Assembly: GCA_963677745.1 (NCBI GenBank)
Contig: OY782391.1
Coordinates: 448,001 to 512,000, forward strand
From: Candidatus Altimarinota bacterium
Lineage (GTDB): Bacteria > Patescibacteriota > Gracilibacteria > UBA1369
Direction: 5' to 3'
DNA: 64,000 nt
The notes below the pieces were generated by a model. The model saw only the letters and a list, made by a program, of their open reading frames with translations. It was not told the DNA's origin and did not search any database. Below, piece after piece: positions 7,266 to 36,933 of the stretch. Positions within the stretch are counted from its first letter, which is position 1. Every line of letters starts with the position of its first letter. A program made the position numbers and the translations under genes.

Positions 7266-8533
7266 TGTACATCAAACTAATTAAAAGCAGCTGGAAAGCC
7301 GAACCAAGGAAAATTATCCTGATGTTTTCCGCGCTGACACTGGGACTGGTACTGATCACCCTGCTGTCCGCCCTCAACAGCGGACTGAAAAATTTCTTTT
7401 TTGCGGAAAGCCAGCAGGAAAAGATTCTCCGCGAATTGAATGTTAAAACCAAAAGCCAAACCCTGGGACTAAGCCTGGTTAACCTGATTCCGCATGCTGA
7501 ACTGACCACCGCCACCCTCGATCAGATCAAAAAGATACCCGGTGTGGCGGAAGTTCTTCCCACCAATACCATCAGCGGCATTTCCTCTTTGCAGATCGGC
7601 ATCCTGGGACAGTGGTTTCAAACCGACGCTCTATTATATGGGGCAGGTTATGAACTTCTGGACAGTAAAACCGTCACGGCCAACGCCTGGAACAATTATC
7701 AGGAACCTTACCCCGCTGTAGTTTCGTCCAAACTGATCGATCTCTATAATTTTTCTTTCGCCAATGCCAACAACCTGCCCCAGTTGACCGAAGAAAATTT
7801 TCTGGGTTCGGAAGTCAGAGTCCTGCTCAATCAATCCACCTTCTTTGCCGCCAATACAGGAGAGGTAAAGGAACTGCGGGCCAAAATTATCGGATTCTCT
7901 CCCAACGTAAAATTAATCGGCCTGACACTGCCGCTACCGGCCATCGAAAGAATCAACCGTGACTTCCTCAACAAAAACGACTCCTACTTCCTGGACGCAA
8001 CCGTCCGGGTCAAGTCCCCCAAAGAACTCAGTGCGGTAAAAAGCCGCCTGGAAGAATTGGGACTGGATGTGAAAACCGCCGAATCAAGTCTCAAGTCACT
8101 GGAAAAACTGTTTTTTCTGACTGATCTGGCCCTCAATATTTTCCTGGCAATCATGATCATCATGGCCGGCCTGTTGATCTCATCAACTTTCCTGGCCAAA
8201 ATTGCTGAAAAAAGCAGGGAAATTGCCATTCTCAAAACACTGGGAATGACCGGACCAAGAATTTCACTTCTTTATCTGCTGGAAGCGGCTCTGGTAGGAC
8301 TGGGGGCCAGCATCGCCGGAATCATCCTGGCCTATTTAATCTCCCTGCCCCTGGAATCTTTGATCGCCTATTCGGTAAAAACTCTCATCAATAAACCCGA
8401 AAGATTTTTCCAGTTCAGTCCGGGACAAAATTTATTGTTAATTTTATTCGCGGTTTTAATATCCTGCCTGTTCGCCTATTTTCCCTCTCGCAAAGCGGCA
8501 AAACTCGATCCGATAGAAATCCTGGCCAGGTGA
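7265..8533 (+). CDS. ABC transporter permease (MacB/FtsX family)
   Basis: One N-terminal TM, large extracytoplasmic loop, three C-terminal TMs; EKSREIAILKTLG and PSRKAAKLDPIEIL. Confidence 0.9.
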   Translation: MYIKLIKSSWKAEPRKIILMFSALTLGLVLITLLSALNSGLKNFFFAESQQEKILRELNVKTKSQTLGLSLVNLIPHAELTTATLDQIKKIPGVAEVLPTNTISGISSLQIGILGQWFQTDALLYGAGYELLDSKTVTANAWNNYQEPYPAVVSSKLIDLYNFSFANANNLPQLTEENFLGSEVRVLLNQSTFFAANTGEVKELRAKIIGFSPNVKLIGLTLPLPAIERINRDFLNKNDSYFLDATVRVKSPKELSAVKSRLEELGLDVKTAESSLKSLEKLFFLTDLALNIFLAIMIIMAGLLISSTFLAKIAEKSREIAILKTLGMTGPRISLLYLLEAALVGLGASIAGIILAYLISLPLESLIAYSVKTLINKPERFFQFSPGQNLLLILFAVLISCLFAYFPSRKAAKLDPIEILAR

Positions 8534-8591
8534 ATGGATAATCACTATTCGATCAAGTCAAGTTGTTTTTGTAGTGCATCCGATAAATGTT

Positions 8592-8619
8592 TTGACAACC
8601 GGACCGTGGTACCTATACT
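8592..8619 (+). promoter_or_regulatory. sigma70 promoter of rpoB-ssb-rpoC
   Basis: TTGACA(8592)-16 nt-TATACT(8614). Confidence 0.7.
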
Positions 8620-8638
8620 GGCGCTAGGCTGTCAGAGA

Positions 8639-8770
8639 AGTATCAGGAGTTGATTTTACTTACAACCAAGGCAACTGATCATTGCTGAAGTTTATCACCC
8701 TGCGATACTGTCGATTGCGTTGTTGAAGATAGCAATACCATCATACGGAGAGACTCTCCCGATTATGGTA
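8639..8770 (+). ncRNA. Candidate structured 5' leader RNA of rpoB
   Basis: Nested pairings AGTATC/GATACT, AGG/CCT, TGAT/ATCA, ACTT/AAGT, GCAA/TTGC (8639-8709); then hairpins ATTGC/GCAAT and TACCAT..GGAGA/TCTCC..ATGGTA. Confidence 0.5.
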
Positions 8771-8801
8771 ATTGTCCCAGTATATTCATTATTTCAAGAA
8801 T

Positions 8802-11800
8802 ATGCCGAAGAAAAAATCTTCCACATCGAAAGCCAAGAAGCCACTAAAAAAAGCCGCAGCGTCAAAAAAGACCGCTTCGGTCAAAAAGCCGGTTAAGATT
8901 AAGAAAGCCCCGGCCAAAACTTCCAAACCGGTAAAAAAGACAGCAGCCAAACCAGCCCAGAAAAAGAAGGCTGTAAAGAAGGTTTTGAAAAAGACCGTCT
9001 CCAAAGCTGCCAAAAAAGCTTCCCCCGCCAAGAAAAAGCCCGCTGTCAAAAAAGCACCGGTTAAAGTTAAAAAACCGGCCGCCAAAGTCAAAGTCAAACC
9101 GGCTCCCCAGAAAACGGTCAAAAAAAACGTGCCCGTCAAACCCGTAAAAACGGTTAAAGCCAGCACGCCCAAAGTTCCGGCCAAAAAAGTTGAAAAGCCC
9201 GCCAAGGAAATCAAGGCCGTACAGCCAAAAGCCGCTCCTCAAACCGCCGCCAAGAAAACGGAAAAAGAACTTCCGGCCGCTCCTGCCAAAAAAAGCAAAG
9301 AAAACGTCCGGGAAATTCCCCGCAAATTAAACAAAGACTTTTCTCTGGCCGAAGAAGTTTCAAGACTGCTGCCCAAGGAAAACATTATCATGAAAGAATC
9401 GTCCAACCGGAGATTCTTCACCGATCGTATTGATAAAGACATTGTTCTCCCCAACCTGATCGAAATCCAGCTGGATTCCTATCGCTGGTTTCTGGACATC
9501 GGTATCCGTGAACTGCTGGATGAAATTTCTCCGATTACCGATTTCTCCGGTAAAAAACTGGAACTCCAGTTTTTGGAACATTCCGTGGACGAACCGAAAT
9601 ACGACCCTGAAACCTGCCGTCTAAAAAATCTGACTTACGAAGCTCCCCTCAAAGTCCACGTACAGCTGATCAACAAGGAAACCGGTGAAATCAAGGAACA
9701 GGACGTCTTTTTGGGCGCCATTCCGCTGATGACTCACAAAGGAACCTTTATCGTTAACGGAATCGAAAGAGTAGTTGTTTCCCAGATCGTCCGCTCCCCC
9801 GGCGTGTTTTTCTCAAGAAATGCCGGTGCCCTGAACTCCTTCAACGCCAAGATCATCCCCAAACGCGGTGCCTGGCTGGAAATCGAAACCGATAAAAAAG
9901 GTATTATCAGCGTGAAAATCGACCGCAAAAGAAAAATCCCCGTGACTTCGCTGCTGCGCGTTTTCGGTTATCCCACTGACGACGAAATCCGGGATGTTTT
10001 CAAGGATGTGATCGGAGGTCCGGATAAAGACTATATATTAAATACTCTGGACAAGGACACCTCCAAAACCGTCGACGAGGCATATCAGAACATTTACAAA
10101 AAGATCCGCCCCGGCGACCTGGCTACTCCCGAGAATGCCAAATCACTGATCCAGTCGATGTTTTTTGATTACAAGAAATACGATATGGGACCGGTGGCCA
10201 GATACAAACTCAACAAACGTTTCAACCTCAACACTCCCAACACCAAAGATTTTCATACCCTGCAGGTTGAAGACATCGTTTATATTCTGAAACATCTGAT
10301 TCAGCTCAATAACGGCATCGGCAGAGAAGATGATATCGATCATCTGGCCAACCGCCGCATCCGTGCCGTGGGTGAACTGGTGCAAAACAAATTCCGCGTG
10401 GGTTTGCTGCGCACCGACCGTATCGCCAAAGACCGCATGACAGTGATGGATCTGGAAACGGTTACCCCCACCCAGCTGATCAATTCCCGCCCGATCACCG
10501 CCGCCCTGCGCGAATTCTACGCCAGCTCACAACTTTCCCAGTTTATGGATCAGACCAATCCGCTGGCCGAACTGGCACACAAACGCCGTCTGTCCGCCAT
10601 GGGTCCCGGAGGTTTGACCAGAGAAAGAGCCTCCTTCGACGTACGTGACGTGCATCCGTCCCATTACGGAAGAATCTGCCCGATCGCCACTCCCGAAGGT
10701 CCGAACATCGGTCTGGTCGTGCATCTGGCCACTTATGCCCGCGTCAACAAATACGGCTTCATTGAAACTCCTTACCGCACCATGAACGACACCATCGCGG
10801 TCAAAGATATCAAGAAACTGAAAGGCAAGAAACTGCGCTCCGACCTGATCAATCCCGCCAACGGCAAAATTATTCTGACCAAGGAAACAGTGCTCGGTGA
10901 AAAAGAAATCGCCAAGATCAAGGATTTGGGATTTGAAACCATCAAAGTTTTCAAACACACCACCGACGACGTGCGTTATTATGCCGCCGACGAGGACAAC
11001 GACAAAGTGATCGCGCAGGCCAACACCAGACTGGATGAGGAAGGACAGATAGTCGATTCGCTGGTTTCCGGAAGACAAAACGGAGAACCGGAACTGGTTC
11101 CGGCCAAGAACATCACGCACATGGACATCTCCCCGAAACAGATTATCTCCGAGACCACGGCCCTCATTCCGTTTTTGGAACACGATGACAACACCCGCGC
11201 CTCCATGGGTTCCAACATGCAACGTCAGGCCGTCTCACTGATCTCTCCGGATGCTCCGGTGGTCGGTACCGGTATGGAAGAAATAGTCGCCAAGAGTTCC
11301 GGCCAAATCTATCTGGCCGAAAACAACGGTACGGTTTCCTACGTTGATGCCGAACAGATAGTAGTGATCTACGACAATGGTAAAAAAGCCATCTACAAAC
11401 TCAACAATTACGTCCGCTCCAACCAGTCCACCTGTATTCATCACCGGGCCAGAGTCAACAAAGGCCAAAGAGTAACACGCGGTGATGTCCTGTCCGACGG
11501 TCCGGCCACCGAAAACGGTGAATTGGCCCTGGGCAAGAATGTCCTGGTCGCCTATATGGCCTGGAAAGGTTACAACTTTGAAGACGCCGTAATAGTATCC
11601 GACCGCATCGTTAAAGCCGGCTATTTCGATTCAGTACACATTGAAGCATTTACCATCGACGTCCGCGACACCAAGCTGGGCCCTGAAATTATTACCCGGG
11701 ACATTCCCAATGTCGGTGAAGCCAGACTGAAAGATCTTGATGAAAACGGAATAGTGAGAATCGGTGCCACCGTCCGCGAAGGTGACATCCTGGTCGGTAA

Positions 11801-13088
11801 AATCACCCCCAAGGGCGAAACCGAACTTTCCGCTGAAGAAAGACTTCTCCGCGCCATTTTTGGCGACAAGGCCAGAGATGTTAAAGACACCTCGCTGCGT
11901 CTGCCCGGAGGTGAAGGCGGCAAAGTGGTGGGAGTTCAGATCTTCTCACGCTCCAACGGCGATGAACTGCCGACCGGAGTCAATCAGCAAATTAAAGTAA
12001 ACGTCGCCCAGACCAGAAAAGTATCGGTAGGTGACAAAGTGGCCGGAAGACACGGAAACAAAGGTGTCATCTCGGTCATCGTGCCTCAGGAAAATATGCC
12101 ATTTTTGGCAGACGGCACCCCGATCGACATCATTCTCAACCCGTTGGGTGTGTCATCCCGTATGAATATCGGACAGATTCTGGAAGTGCATCTCGGCTGG
12201 GCCGCCAGAAAACTTAATTTCACGGTTGCCACCCCCGCCCTTAACGGTATTCACACCGACCAGATCAAAGAACTGCTCAAACAGGCAAAACTGCCCGAAG
12301 CCGGTAAAATTCAGCTTTATGACGGTATTACCGGTGAGCCTTTTGATCATCAGACCACAGTGGGAATTGCCTATATTATGAAACTATCCCATCTGGTTGA
12401 AGATAAAATTCACGCCCGTTCAGTCGGTCCTTACTCTCTGGTCACCCAGCAGCCGCTCGGTGGTAAAGCCCAACACGGAGGACAGAGATTCGGAGAAATG
12501 GAAGTATGGGCACTGGAAGCTTATGGTGCCGCCCATACCCTGCAGGAAATGCTGACCATCAAGTCCGACGATATCTATGGCCGCGCCAAAGCCTACGAAT
12601 CAATTGTCAAAGACGAACCGATCAAGAAACCAAAAACCCCTGAATCGTTCAACGTTCTGGTACGGGAACTGCAGTCATTGGGTCTTTCCGTTAAATTTGA
12701 AAACTCACACACCTCGGCTGAAGATGAATACGAAGGTAACCCCGAACTGGAAGATGTGGCCGAAATAGAACCCGAGACCAGAGAAAGTCTGGCCCTGCAG
12801 GCGGAGATTACTCAAAAAATTGCTGCCGAAGGGGAAGAAACGGATAAAGTTGAAAAGAATGTTTCCGGAATTGAAGTGGTGAAAGACACCGAAGAAGAAA
12901 ACCTGGAAGTCAAAGAGATCAAGGAAGAAGGAGATCCTGCCGACCTGGAAGATTTCGCCAAGATGGAAGCGGAACTGGATCTGGATCAGATCGACGCCCC
13001 GGAAGAGGAACTGCGGGCTATGGAAGAAAATCCCCTGCCCCTGGAAGATCTGGATATCCCTGAAGTAGATGAAGACGTTAAGCCCTAA
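8802..13088 (+). CDS. rpoB: RNA polymerase beta subunit with Lys/Ala/Pro-rich N-terminal arm and acidic C-terminal tail
   Basis: [67 protein letters not shown] 8802 preferred over TTG 8772. Confidence 0.98.
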
Positions 13089-13112: not shown

Positions 13113-13538
13113 ATGAGAAGTGTCAATAAAGTAATACTCATCGGAAATCTCACCCGCGACCCCGAACTGAGACAAACTCCGGGAGGGCAGGCGGTCTGCA
13201 CCTTCTCAATTGCCACCAACAGGGAATGGATCACCAAGGACGGCGGTAAACATTCCCTCACCGAATATCACGATCTGGTCGCCTGGGCCAAACTCGCCGA
13301 AATCTGCAGCACTCACCTCAAAAAAAGCAAACTGGTCTACGTGGAAGGATACCTGAAAACCCGCAGCTGGGAATCTCCGGAAGGAATAAAGAAATTCAAG
13401 ACGGAAATTGTCATTCAGGATCTGATCATACTGGACCGCAAAGAATACACAGCCTACAGCAGCGAAGAATTTGTCCCCCAGGATTATCCCGACGCACCGC
13501 CCGCCGCCACCGACATCGATCTGAACCTTGGTCTGTAA
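13113..13538 (+). CDS. ssb: Single-stranded DNA-binding protein with non-canonical C-terminus
   Basis: SVNKVILIGNLTRDPELR, FSIATNREW, VYVEGYLKTRSW; ends DIDLNLGL. Confidence 0.95.
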   Translation: MRSVNKVILIGNLTRDPELRQTPGGQAVCTFSIATNREWITKDGGKHSLTEYHDLVAWAKLAEICSTHLKKSKLVYVEGYLKTRSWESPEGIKKFKTEIVIQDLIILDRKEYTAYSSEEFVPQDYPDAPPAATDIDLNLGL

Positions 13539-13590: not shown

Positions 13591-16500
13591 ATGAGTTTCA
13601 ACGACAATAGTAATTCAGCCCAAAACAAAGCCCGAGAGGCCTTCGATAAAATTTCCATTTCGGTTGCTTCACCCGAAGAAATTCTGTCCTGGTCATTTGG
13701 GGAGGTAAAGAAACCGGAAACAATCAATTACCGGACACAGAAACCGGAAAGAGACGGTTTGTTTTGTGAAAAGATCTTCGGTCCCACCAAAAACTGGGAA
13801 TGTTATTGCGGAAAATACAAAAGAATCCGTTATAAGGGAATCATTTGTGAAAAATGCGGAGTCGAAGTCACCCACTCCTCAGTCCGCCGCTCCCGCATGG
13901 GACATATTAAACTGGCCGTGCCGGTAACCCATATCTGGTTTCTGCGTTCCACACCTTCCAGAATCGGCCTGCTTTTGGATCTGCCCATCAAAGCCATTGA
14001 ACAGGTCGTTTATTTTGCCGCCTATGTCATCACCGAAGTTGATGAAAAAGCCAAGGAAGAGGCCCGTGAACAGCTGACCAACGAATACAAGAACCTCCGC
14101 AAAAAAATCCAGGAAGACTCTTCCCGTGCCACCGCCGGTGCCAATAATGAAAAAGGCAAAACCGACAAAATCGAAAAAGATTACTCCCATAAACTGGACG
14201 AACTGGACAGCCAGCACAAAAAGACCAAGGAACAGCTGGAAGGAATCCGCATCACAGCCATCTACTCCGAACTGGAATATCGTGAACTTTCAACCAAATT
14301 CGGTCAGATCTTCAAGGCTGGCATCGGCGCCGAAGCCATCCGTCATATTATCCAGAACCTCGATCTGGAAGTGATGATCAAAAATCTGGACAAAGAACTG
14401 GTAAAATCTTCCGGACAGAAGCAGAAAAAAATCATCAAAAGACTGAAATTGGCCGGAAGCCTGCTCAAAGCCGATATCCGACCGGAATGGATGATCATGA
14501 CTGTCTTACCGGTAATTCCACCGGATCTGCGTCCGATGGTACAGCTGGACGGTGGAAGATTTGCCGCCTCCGACCTGAATGACCTTTACCGCCGTGTCAT
14601 CAACAGAAACAACCGTCTGAAGAGACTGATGGCCATCGGCGCTCCCGAAGTGATCTCGCGCAATGAAAAGAGAATGCTGCAGGAAGCCGTAGACACACTT
14701 TTAAATAATTCCGCCCGCGCCGGCAAAACAGTTTTCAATTCCGGGGACAAACGGAAACTCCGCTCCCTCTCCGACATGCTCAAAGGTAAGCAGGGACGCT
14801 TCCGCCAGAACCTGCTCGGTAAACGTGTCGACTATTCCGGCCGCTCCGTAATCGTGGTAGGTCCTTCGCTGAAACTGGATCAATGCGGTTTGCCAAAACA
14901 GATGGCCATGGAACTTTTCAAACCGTTTGTGATCGGCAGACTGATCCGCGACGGACTGGCCCACAACATCAAGAGCTCGGAAAAACTGATTCAGGCCGGT
15001 ACCAAGGAAGTCTGGGATATTCTGGAAGAGGTCACCTGTGACCGCTATGTACTTTTAAACCGCGCCCCGACACTGCACAGACTGGGTATTCAGGCTTTCC
15101 GTCCCGTACTCGTTGAAGGTAAAGCCATTCAGATCCATCCGCTGGTTTGTACCGCTTTCAACGCCGACTTTGATGGAGACCAGATGGCCGTCCATGTGCC
15201 GCTTTCCAAACCGGCCCAGGAAGAAGCCAAGAATCTGATTTGTTCCAGTCACAACCTGCTTAAACCATCGGCCGGCGAACCAATTGTTACTCCGGTACAG
15301 GACATGGTATTGGGCTGTTATTATCTGACCAAGGAAACTCCGGGCAAAAACGGTGAGGGCACCAACTATACCGATCTGAATGAGGCAATCCTGGCCTGGA
15401 GAACCAGCAATCTTCACCTGCAGGCCAAAATCAAAGCCCGCTTCCGCGGAGAAATCCGTGAAACCACTCTGGGCAGACTGATTTTCAACAGTTTCCTGCC
15501 GGAAGAACTCCCCTATTACAATCAGACTTTTGGCAAAAAACAATTGAGCGCACTGCTTAACGACGCCTTTCTGATAGTCGGCGGCGCCAAAGTCGCCGAG
15601 ATCGTCGACCATCTGAAAAAAATCGGTTTTGAATTCGCCACTTATTCGGGTCTATCCATCGGCGCCGCCGACATGATCATCCCCCCCACCAAGGGCAAGA
15701 TCATCGACGATGCTTCGGGACAGATCAAACAGATCAACAATCTGTACCAAAGCGGTCTGATTACAGACAACGAGCGTTACAACCACACTATTAAGACCTG
15801 GAACAAAGCCAAAAACGAAATCTCCAAAGTGATGATCGACGGTATCGATCCCGAGAATGATCTGCACTATATGATCAACTCCGGAGCCCGTGGTAACTGG
15901 GGACAGATTACCCAGCTCTGCGGAATGAAAGGCTTGGTGGCCAATCCTTCCGGTAAGACGATCGAACTTCCCATCAAATCCAACCTCAAAGAGGGCTTTA
16001 CCATTCTGGAATACTTCATCGCCACTCACGGAGGACGTAAAGGTAAATCCGATACCGCCTTGAAAACCGCTGAAGCCGGCCATTTGACCCGTCGTCTGGT
16101 CGATTCGGTACAGGATATCATCATCAAAGAAATCGATTGCGGGTCCGTCCATTCCCATATTGTCACCAAAACCGAATCCGACCGTATCGGTGAAAAACTG
16201 GAAAACAGAATTTTCGGACGTGTTCTGGCTGAAAACGTGGTTAACCCCAAAACCGGAGAAATAATTGCCGAAAAAGGCCAGGAAGTTGACCGGAAAATCA
16301 TCAAACAGATCGAAGACTTCAACGTGGAGGAAGTTAAAGTCCGCTCAGTCATCACCTGCCGCACCCGCGGCGGTATCTGTGTCCGTTGTTACGGCAGAGA
16401 TCTTGGTACCAACAAAACCGTCGAACCCGGAACAGCCGTCGGTATCATCGCCGCACAGTCAATCGGAGAACCTGGTACGCAGTTGACGATGAGAACCTTC

Positions 16501-17493
16501 CACATGGGTGGAGTTGCTTCCGAAGAAGGAGACATCACCCAGGGTCTGACCCGCGTGGAAGAACTGTTTGAAGCCCGCGCCCCCAAATCACCGGCCATCA
16601 TGACCGAACTGTCGGGTATCGCAGAAATTACCAGCAAAGGCCAACTGACCGAAATCAAAGTCACCACCGAAGAACCTCTCGAAAAAGACTATCTGCTGAT
16701 CGGAGATCTGGAAGCCACCGTCAAAAAAGGTGACGTGGTAAAAGAGAAAGAAATCATTGCCAAGTCCCCGCTGAGCAAGAATATGATCAGAGCCGAATTT
16801 AACGCCAAGATTCTGGAGGTTAACACCAATCACGTTCTGCTCCGCAGCATGGATCTGATTTCCCGCACCTATAAGATCCCCTTTGGTAAAATCATCAAGA
16901 TCAAGAACAAGGCCAAAGTTCAAAAAGGCCAGTCATTGACTTCCGGCCACCTCAACCTGCGCGATCTGATCAATCTGACCGACGTCTACACCGCCCAAAA
17001 ATATCTGGTTTCCGAGGTCCAAAGCATCTACGCCTCACAGGGACAGACCATCAACGACAAACACATTGAAATCATCGCCCGCCAGATGCTCTCCAAAGTC
17101 AGAATTGTCGACCCCGGAGAAACGCATTATCTGCCCGGTGAAGTGGTAGACATCCTGGAAGCCGAAGACGCCAACCTGAAAATGGAAAAAGAGAACAAGA
17201 AAATGGCTTCCGTGGAAAGACTGCTTTTGGGTCTAACCCGCATCTCGCTCCACACCGACAGCTGGCTCTCCGCAGCCTCATTCCAGGAAACAATCCGTGT
17301 TCTGGTCGAGGCTTCCACCACCAACAAAGTGGATGTACTGGAAGGTCTGAAGGAAAATGTTATCATCGGTAAACTGATTCCCGCCGGCGAAACCTACAGA
17401 AAACGCCACCCGGAACTGGTCGATGAATTTGCCAACCTGGGAAATAAAGAACCTCAAATGATCGAAAGGCCGAAATTCTATCCGGCCATCTAG
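13591..17493 (+). CDS. rpoC: RNA polymerase beta' subunit
   Basis: Zn ribbon CYCGKYK...CEKC, catalytic [28 protein letters not shown]. Confidence 0.99.
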
Positions 17494-36393: not shown

Positions 36394-36933
36394 ATGGCCG
36401 AACAAGAAAAAAAACCAGCCGTAAAAGCCAAGAAAGCCCCTGAGAAGGAAGTTAAAAAAACTGAGGCTGCCGGCGAAAAAACCGCCCCGGTTGCCGCCAC
36501 CCCCGCCACCGCTTCCGCCGCATCAGCCGCAGCCACTCCCGCCGAAGGCGAAGTAAAGAAGATTAAGAAAAGCAAATCCAAAAGGACTGTGACGGAAGGA
36601 AAAGCCTTCGTTCAATCAAGTTTTAACAACACCATTGTCACCATCACCGACCTTAACGGAAAAGTGATAGCCTGGAGTAGCGCCGGTTCCAACGGATTCA
36701 AGGGAGCCAAAAAAGCCACTCCGTACGCGGCCCAGATTTCGGCTGAAGCAGCCATTAATAAGGCTCTTCTTTACGGAATAGAAAAGCTGCACGTTTTCGT
36801 CAAGGGAGTCGGTGCAGGAAGAGAACAAGCTGTTAGAGGCCTTCACTCCAACGGCGTGGACATCGAATCAATCACCGATGTCACTCCTGTTCCGCACAAT
36901 GGTTGTCGTTCCAGAAAATCCCGCCGAGTTTAA
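36394..36933 (+). CDS. rpsK: 30S ribosomal protein S11 with long Lys/Ala-rich N-terminal extension
   Basis: SFNNTIVTITD, GFKGAKKATPYAAQ, DVTPVPHNGCR. Confidence 0.98.
   Translation: MAEQEKKPAVKAKKAPEKEVKKTEAAGEKTAPVAATPATASAASAAATPAEGEVKKIKKSKSKRTVTEGKAFVQSSFNNTIVTITDLNGKVIAWSSAGSNGFKGAKKATPYAAQISAEAAINKALLYGIEKLHVFVKGVGAGREQAVRGLHSNGVDIESITDVTPVPHNGCRSRKSRRV

Follow-up and report, generated by a model that had tools for sequence, protein, structure and literature searches.

A lysine-rich N-terminal arm on the RNA polymerase beta subunit of a gracilibacterium, a candidate nucleic-acid tether

The rpoB locus and the composition of the arm

The stretch analysed here (64,000 nucleotides (nt) of contig OY782391.1 from a Candidatus Altimarinota genome; hereafter the window) harbours rpoB, the gene for the beta subunit of RNA polymerase (RNAP), whose frame is open on the forward strand from TTG 8772 or ATG 8802 to the stop codon at 13086-13088. 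Read from ATG 8802, RpoB comprises 1428 amino acids (aa), the first 196 of which form a lysine-rich arm upstream of an otherwise normal beta subunit. Sequence comparison indicates that the arm is real, translated and an integral part of the sole beta subunit. The locus is composed of the following features, all on the forward (+) strand:

8592..8619, +, promoter-like site (TTGACA, 16 nt, TATACT), 11 of 12 consensus positions
8626..8801, +, putative 5' leader of ~175 nt, with the blocks GCTGTCAG at 8628-8635 and GATTGCGTTGTTGAAGATAGC at 8713-8733 conserved in the upstream alignment
8802..8804, +, start codon of the long RpoB (MPKKK), assigned from the start-context model and the M[PA]KK starts of relatives
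8802..9191, +, polylysine arm proper, residues 1-130, net charge ~+50, delimited by composition and Lys spacing
9192..9350, +, mixed-charge spacer (K, E, A, P, Q), residues 131-183, delimited by the charge profile and predicted coil
9351..9389, +, conserved 13-aa linker motif, residues 184-196, directly upstream of the old start, delimited by the codons of relatives
9390..9392, +, codon of Met197 (ATG), at which rpoB ancestrally began and internal initiation is possible, aligned with the start of arm-less RpoBs
9390..12701, +, canonical RNAP beta core, residues 197-1300, with six Pfam Rpb2 domains
12702..13085, +, acidic disordered C-terminal tail, residues 1301-1428, net charge -37

The identity of the core is given by six Pfam families (PF04563, PF04561, PF04565, PF10385, PF00562 and PF04560), all of which exceed their cut-offs (E-values 4e-18 to 9e-128) and together cover residues 218-1300. 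The corresponding Rpb2-type domains are complete and follow one another in order (protrusion, lobe, fork/domain 3, external 1, hybrid-binding domain 6, domain 7), and no Pfam family was found within residues 1-217 or after residue 1300. The rpoB gene, which is assumed to be essential, has a single match in the source genome and in each of the 39 relatives with a match.

The first 130 residues of the protein consist of 50 K, 22 A, 18 V, 16 P, 9 S, 8 T, 2 L, 2 Q and one each of M, I and N (38.5% K, 17% A, 12% P), with D, E, R, F, Y, W, H, C and G being absent altogether. An earlier reading of this DNA, made from the letters and their translations (the sequence-only reading), had counted by hand 50 Lys over the same residues and neither Asp, Glu, Arg nor any aromatic residue, and the composition count matches it exactly. 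The same reading had let the arm fused to beta end at 9302; the fusion stands, while the arm extends to 9389. Taken over residues 1-196, the arm contains 63 K, 9 E, 3 R and 1 D, the net charge per 50 residues dropping to +11 and then to +4 in residues 131-183. The second Met of the protein is residue 197, encoded by ATG 9390, and the sequence NRRFF begins at residue 202.

Throughout the arm, Lys residues occur in runs of 1-3 at a spacing of at most 4 residues, and the triplet KKK is under-represented (3 occurrences vs 7.2 in shuffled arms). The description of the arm as being built from KKPA/KKAP/VKK units turned out to be loose: KKPA and KKAP occur twice each (0.4 +/- 0.6 in shuffles), no tetrapeptide unit of the arm is significantly enriched over shuffles, and Tandem Repeats Finder returned only two weak short arrays from the arm DNA (an 18-nt unit repeated 2.6 times and a 6-nt unit repeated 2.7 times). 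Hence, with its even Lys spacing, the scarcity of KKPA/KKAP and minimal tandem repeats, the arm is an evenly charged polycation rather than a repeat array. It also contains the most Lys-rich 60-aa window (26/60) among the 1106 crude open reading frames (ORFs) of the 1.34-Mb single-contig genome, which puts its Lys richness beyond chance.

At the DNA level, the rpoB frame is the only one open over the whole of 8802-9389, the other five frames being interrupted by 1-13 stops each. The arm coding region includes ten A-runs of 6-8 bases, and its Ala and Pro codon preferences match those of the core. Two shorter open frames lie antisense to the arm, at 8789-9214 (-) and 8862-9242 (-), with 141 and 126 aa, respectively; rich in Phe, Leu and Gly, they merely mirror the Lys codons and give no evidence of genes.

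The arm is predicted to be disordered. In an AlphaFold2 model of residues 1-640, residues 1-181 have no secondary structure, the mean predicted local distance difference test (pLDDT) score of 10-residue blocks being 43-49 in the arm proper and 36-47 in the spacer, which is modelled as coil (36-49 over residues 1-181 as a whole), and a short helix of low confidence appears at residues 182-188. The model is poor overall, with a mean pLDDT of 56 and a predicted template-modelling score (pTM) of 0.38, and was used solely for the absence of structure in the arm.

The neighbourhood of rpoB is as follows. An ssb gene at 13113-13538 (+; Pfam SSB, E 8e-34) separates rpoB from rpoC at 13591-17493, and a gene for an FtsX-type permease precedes rpoB in place of rplJ-rplL.

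Evidence that the arm belongs to the beta subunit

Over 8400-9700, the contigs assembled from three public runs (two studies) match the window base for base and contain neither substitution, stop nor indel, in agreement with the in-frame fusion of arm and beta proposed in the sequence-only reading, although these contigs may include the source sample. A fourth run has the stretch in pieces, with no single piece spanning it.

A start-context model trained on the source genome chooses ATG 8802 for the rpoB ORF with a score of 7.9 bits, which places it at the 64th percentile among chosen starts and at the 99.8th among internal ATGs; TTG 8772 scores -9.0. The RpoBs of relatives likewise begin with M[PA]KK directly after an upstream stop. 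In addition, a regular expression for the two promoter hexamers finds a match ahead of rpoB in 16 of 20 family sequences (one being the window itself), and transcription probably starts near 8626; no promoter-like site was found on the forward strand inside the arm. The leader between this point and ATG 8802 could be a regulatory leader of rpoB. RNAalifold found a GCUGUC-GAUAGC pairing as its sole consensus helix, and an Rfam search of the leader gave chance-level rows only and no family. As Shine-Dalgarno (SD) cores are depleted upstream of the ORFs of this genome (49 of 1106 upstream regions vs 506 of 5000 random windows) and these upstream regions are A/T-rich, translation in this organism starts without SD sites.

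The linker motif directly upstream of Met197 is present in 22 of the 30 relative loci. Its codons vary at synonymous sites for Leu, Pro, Lys, Asn and Ile (Pro: CCC 9, CCA 8, CCG 4, CCT 1; Lys: AAG 11, AAA 10). Because the amino acids are kept while the synonymous sites vary, the linker is evidently under selection at the protein level. The position of Met197 is occupied by Met in all 22 motif-bearing loci. Among a broader set of relatives with an arm of at least 60 aa (n=123), Met was found at this position in 55 and another residue in 68 (Ile in 41, Leu in 9, Val in 7), and 51 of the 123 have no Met in the last 14 residues of the arm. Since each genome has a single rpoB match, the arm-bearing protein is the only beta subunit of those relatives in which Met is missing around the old start.

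Taken together, the linker kept as protein, the typical context of ATG 8802, the conserved promoter upstream of it and the codon preferences shared with the core indicate that the arm is translated as part of the sole beta subunit. It would be missed by gene callers that cut the protein back to the "canonical" start.

The sequence-only reading had also suggested that an arm-less isoform might be produced from ATG 9390. In such a case, long RpoB made from ATG 8802 and short RpoB made from ATG 9390 would coexist and the arm would mark a sub-population of RNAP, an arrangement that would be compatible with the tethering role proposed below. ATG 9390 is the ancestral start, kept in all the motif-bearing loci, and its context (3.0 bits; 24th percentile of starts, 94.5th percentile of internal ATGs) is like that of the ssb start (2.9 bits). 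Moreover, with no use of SD sites in this genome, initiation may need no more than a stretch that is rich in A and weakly structured. However, the A-rich context arises from the conserved Lys, Glu, Asn and Ile codons themselves, the Met is replaced in 68 of the 123 arm-bearing relatives, and the arm has no internal promoter-like site. A putative internal SD site (AAGGA) before ATG 9390 was rejected, because the genome does not use SD sites and the codons for K and E in the motif are variable (AAG 11, AAA 10 for Lys). Two isoforms are thus possible in this organism, given the 24th-percentile context, and not a general rule, given the 51 relatives with no nearby Met; overall we regard their existence as unlikely, though with an appreciable chance.

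Distribution and evolution of the arm

Conservation of the arm was assessed in a nearest set of 121 RpoBs, i.e. 120 database proteins with at least 67% identity plus the RpoB of the window; the nearest hits carry the name Peregrinibacteria. As regular-expression anchors missed some sequences (e.g. 5 of the 30 loci), arm lengths were re-measured with BLAST anchors. An arm of at least 60 aa is present in 109 of the 121 proteins and a charge of at least +10 in 112, the median arm being 124 aa and the range 0 to 245 aa. The protein with an arm of 0 aa (P0066) begins at the anchor and represents a truncated gene call, not an arm-less protein. Across 40 genomes of the same family and order, the rpoB open frames span 1180-1464 aa and their upstream in-frame part is Lys-rich. 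Hence the prospect raised in the sequence-only reading, that relatives might lack the arm and the frame might not be conserved, did not materialise.

The sequence of the arm is a different matter. In relatives with 80-96% core identity, arm identity amounts to 0.48-0.56 with 35-63 gap positions, compared with 0.46-0.47 +/- 0.03 for shuffled arms; in the same comparison the 22-residue linker stretch reaches 0.59-1.00 and the acidic tail 0.40-0.82, so that the tail is better conserved in sequence than the arm. When residues 1-196 were compared with 5.8 billion proteins, nothing was returned at E <= 0.001, not even the relatives. Because 109 of 121 RpoBs keep an arm of at least 60 aa while arm identity barely exceeds that of shuffles, the arm is maintained in length class, composition, charge and open frame rather than in sequence, which answers for its length and charge the question raised in the sequence-only reading.

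In a survey of the class (40 genomes, 26 families), long basic arms of 104-202 aa with a charge of +12 to +36 were found in 8 genomes, three in the window's order and five in a single other family (f24). Arms of 60-99 aa occur in 6 further genomes, and 26 have only a stub of 1-59 aa, often starting with MAKK or MPKK. Outside the class, a Lys-rich arm was detected in 1 of 80 loci (Actinobacteria, Firmicutes, Cyanobacteria, Chloroflexi and other Patescibacteria, with RpoBs at 45-63% identity, among the matches listed), the one being a Peribacteria metagenome-assembled genome. Of the cluster representatives with a complete N-terminus, 3 of 133 have a Lys-rich arm, two of these being the window's own kin, and the median length before the anchor is 9 aa. 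The statement that other beta subunits have no such arm therefore holds for 79 of the 80 other-lineage loci and 130 of the 133 representatives.

The third armed representative, P0224, has a 61-aa Lys-rich N-terminal arm at 40% identity and constitutes an unrelated, independent case. Extensions of other kinds were seen as well: P0207 (2309 aa) has 342 residues before the beta anchor that by eye resemble the RNAP alpha N-terminal domain, and P0148 has a 335-aa N-terminal extension that is not Lys-rich; both may be fusions or gene-call errors. The origin of the arm as a fused neighbouring gene found no support, as none of the 14 arm-less or short-arm loci has an ORF of the Lys/Ala/Pro arm type. 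Lys-rich frames at 4 of these 14 loci are, by eye, out-of-frame junk.

The opposite end of RpoB is charged too. The tail (128 aa, low-complexity) contains the second most acidic 60-aa window of the genome. A tail charge of -10 or lower was found in 116 of the 121 nearest RpoBs and an acidic tail in all 40 genomes of the class survey. Since acidic C-tails are also common in other phyla, namely on the RpoBs of Firmicutes and Actinobacteria, the tail is not the unusual part of this protein.

A Lys-rich extension is also carried by a transcription factor of the same genome, GreA (C1:197004-197657, -, outside the window), in which 53 N-terminal residues rich in Lys, Ala and Val precede the Pfam domain GreA_GreB_N, starting at residue 58. 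This extension is common only to the nearest genera, with at least 5 Lys in 12 of 30 loci. Further Lys/Ala-rich appendages, milder than the RpoB arm, were noticed: ribosomal protein S11 (window 36394-36933, +) has an N-terminal extension of ~60 aa; a 93-aa Lys-rich ORF (C1:378157-378438, +) with no Pfam family is possibly a small H1-like protein; and a treble-clef zinc-finger protein (C1:1091268-1091876, -) has a Lys/Ala C-tail.

Proposed role and comparison with known systems

According to the explanation we find best, RpoB of this organism would be a single chain in which an N-terminal arm of ~196 disordered, polycationic residues leads into a normal beta subunit, followed in turn by an acidic C-tail. 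The arm would have grown from the short basic M(P/A)KK N-terminus carried by most of the class, the expansion taking place upstream of the original start codon, and selection would hold its composition (Lys, Ala, Pro and Val, almost no acidic residues, even charge) rather than its sequence. By the Pfam boundary, the root of the arm would be placed ~20 residues before the protrusion domain, which lines the DNA cleft of RNAP and is the docking place of CarD-type factors; 196 residues should suffice to reach upstream or downstream DNA, or the nascent RNA. The arm may bind nucleic acid, chiefly duplex DNA, electrostatically and with no sequence preference, and such binding would keep RNAP on the nucleoid and stabilise promoter and elongation complexes. 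We therefore propose, with cautious rather than firm confidence, that the arm is probably a non-specific nucleic-acid tether, mainly for duplex DNA, fused to core RNAP. That the arm is translated, belongs to the sole beta subunit, is selected for its composition and is limited to a clade is what the sequences show; that it binds polyanions, mainly DNA, and thereby affects transcription is what we infer. The interpretation given in the sequence-only reading is thus supported in part, the DNA tethering, nucleoid compaction and condensate formation suggested there being drawn from composition and from the precedents described below.

Several observations weigh against this proposal. Expression of the arm is deduced from comparison of sequences, and the functional assignment derives from composition, because the arm has no homology to any DNA-binding family. 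Lys-rich tails can also bind RNA or polyphosphate. The disorder call is soft, the AlphaFold2 model being weak. Within the same order, some members have a short arm or practically none (1 aa in L115, 5 aa in P0117, 8 aa in P0116 and 12 aa in P0091); they have either lost the arm or never had one, and since they manage without it, the arm is dispensable for RNAP function as such. Furthermore, the genome has HU, a CarD-like protein and Mfd, as well as an RpoA of 324 aa in which a C-terminal domain is apparent by eye only, so that there is no obvious functional gap to fill. Two separate genes with PF02559 were found in it, one Mfd-sized and one in a 301-aa open frame. The idea that the arm replaces a missing factor accordingly received no support.

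The arm may also be made and selected with another polyanion as its main ligand, such as nascent or ribosomal RNA (in coupling or chaperoning), polyphosphate or anionic membrane lipid. Composition cannot tell polyanions apart, milder Lys-rich tails are found on the RNA-binding proteins S11, IF-2 and S1 of the same genome, and the H1-like AlgP is reportedly linked to polyphosphate granules. Nevertheless, the arm sits on a DNA-tracking enzyme, GreA is armed as well although its target is RNAP and not free RNA, and the documented Lys-repeat tails on enzymes act on DNA, for which reasons this explanation appears rather improbable.

A further question is whether the arm has any specific function, as it might be a tolerated, largely neutral low-complexity expansion caused by slippage on A-rich Lys codons. 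Such an origin would agree with an arm sequence that is near-random even at 96% core identity, with the many gaps per pairwise alignment, with the wide range of arm lengths including arm-less members inside the order, and with the A-runs in the coding region. However, drift at such a rate would add stops, frameshifts and acidic residues, whereas in 109 of 121 relatives the arm has stayed open and strongly basic. In the arm of the RpoB described here, Lys is evenly spaced and KKK under-represented. Long arms are moreover found both in the window's order and in family f24, which are separate clades of the class, a similar GreA arm was gained in the same sub-clade, and tandem repeats in the DNA are minimal. 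Neutral expansion is thus decidedly improbable.

The opposite charges of the two ends of RpoB (arm +56, tail -37, core +1) bring to mind a pairing of the arm with the acidic tail of the same subunit, either for charge balance or as an intramolecular latch that would mask one or both tails. The Lys repeats of TopA likewise end in acidic residues, according to the consulted part of PMC5714199. In 161 RpoBs, arm and tail are correlated in length (rho = 0.56) and in charge (rho = -0.33) when raw values are used. Both correlations vanish in 160 phylogenetically independent contrasts (charge r = -0.01, p = 0.87; length r = 0.10, p = 0.21), by which the co-evolution of arm and tail charge is rejected. 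Acidic tails are furthermore present throughout the class and in other phyla that have no arm, and the total charge of RpoB is not constant, its standard deviation being 18 vs 16 for the arm alone. Pairing as the main role of the arm is therefore very unlikely. Finally, that the arm lies outside the protein, with translation from 9390 only and an upstream frame that is an artefact of assembly or annotation, can hardly be credited: the minus-strand frames do show how easily Lys-rich composition keeps frames open, yet the linker upstream of 9390 is selected as protein, Met is missing around the old start in many relatives, nearly all of them retain an open frame although indels are numerous, a conserved promoter lies upstream of 8802, and the contigs of three runs, which may include the source sample, agree base for base.

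A more far-reaching version of the tether proposal may be mentioned as well, in which the transcription machinery of this clade would be a self-tethering polyampholyte, the arm and tail of RpoB together with the GreA arm driving electrostatic clustering of RNAP with DNA or RNA as condensates or as a coated nucleoid. This is a speculative suggestion that we consider decidedly doubtful. If true, it would provide a bacterial counterpart, encoded by a core subunit, of the disordered-tail organisation of eukaryotic Pol II, and acetylation of Lys or an arm-less isoform from Met197 might serve to tune it.

Bacterial core RNAP is usually taken to be a compact folded machine, and non-specific DNA contacts and clustering are credited to accessory proteins. 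Here, an essential core subunit with a polycation of ~200 residues at one end and a polyanion of ~130 residues at the other is kept throughout an order of bacteria that are uncultured and have small genomes. Should the arm bind DNA, promoter search, residence time on DNA and clustering of RNAP would change with it, and it would offer a natural test case for the effect of a disordered charged tail on bacterial RNAP, one that is approachable without culturing the organism. Our literature searches gave no description of such an arm on RNAP beta. Term searches in the main text of the Peribacteria genome paper and of a 2024 survey of beta insertions, which covers the Candidate Phyla Radiation (CPR) but only folded domains, gave none either.

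In composition the arm is like the C-tail of histone H1, Hc1/Hc2 of Chlamydia, AlgP of Pseudomonas and the tail of mycobacterial HupB, which contain ~35-40% Lys together with Ala and Pro and are acid-poor and disordered; unlike the arm, an appendage of an enzyme, these are free-standing chromatin proteins. The arm alone matched no Pfam family at E <= 10, hence it is not a member of the H1, Hc1 or Hc2 families and its likeness to them is compositional. An Atlas search with the arm gave best scores of 0.77-0.80, and its lone lead, a cluster in which 20% of the members carry HC2, had a score of 0.77, too low to be useful. The arm may thus be called H1-like, as it was in the sequence-only reading, in the sense of composition, and not in that of homology to H1, Hc1, Hc2 or AlgP.

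Three further close systems are described in the literature. In actinobacterial (Streptomyces) TopA, C-terminal lysine repeats stabilise the TopA-DNA complex and confer processivity, as stated in the consulted part of PMC5714199. Both proteins, as far as that part goes, have a long Lys-rich low-complexity tail, restricted to a lineage, on an essential DNA-tracking enzyme, the tail of TopA containing acidic residues. The arm differs in being N-terminal instead of C-terminal, in belonging to RNAP, in having no regular repeat unit and in occurring in the phylum Patescibacteria/CPR. When the features of the TopA tail are looked for in RpoB, a Lys-rich terminal tail conserved in the lineage is found (109 of 121), and a recognisable repeated unit is not.

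In Streptomyces DdbA, an H1-like N-terminal domain on a DksA-like protein binds and condenses DNA in vitro, according to the consulted part of PMC3643593. As presented there, DdbA likewise has a Lys-rich H1-like N-terminal domain on a protein of the transcription machinery, and is the closest parallel to the GreA arm. DdbA is an accessory factor, whereas the arm described here is on a core subunit, and the likeness is not based on homology between the arms.

Myxococcus CarD binds RNAP beta, and binds DNA via a basic, disordered domain preceded by an acidic segment; the basic module brings promoter activity to its maximum, and in M. xanthus the basic part consists of AT-hooks with a preference for the minor groove (PMC4374960, consulted part). 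From that part of the source, CarD shares with our case a disordered basic DNA-binding module that stands beside an acidic segment and is placed at RNAP beta. It is, however, a separate protein docking on beta, whereas the module here lies within beta, in a genome that has its own CarD-like gene. PF02559 (CarD_CdnL_TRCF RID domain) was not found in RpoB by Pfam, and the resemblance to CarD is functional only. An H1-like version of CarD is also said to exist, to judge by the title of a paper. Considering all these systems, H1-type and Lys-repeat tails as such are already known, and the novelty lies in the protein that bears the tail, here a core subunit of RNAP, together with the parallel arm on GreA.

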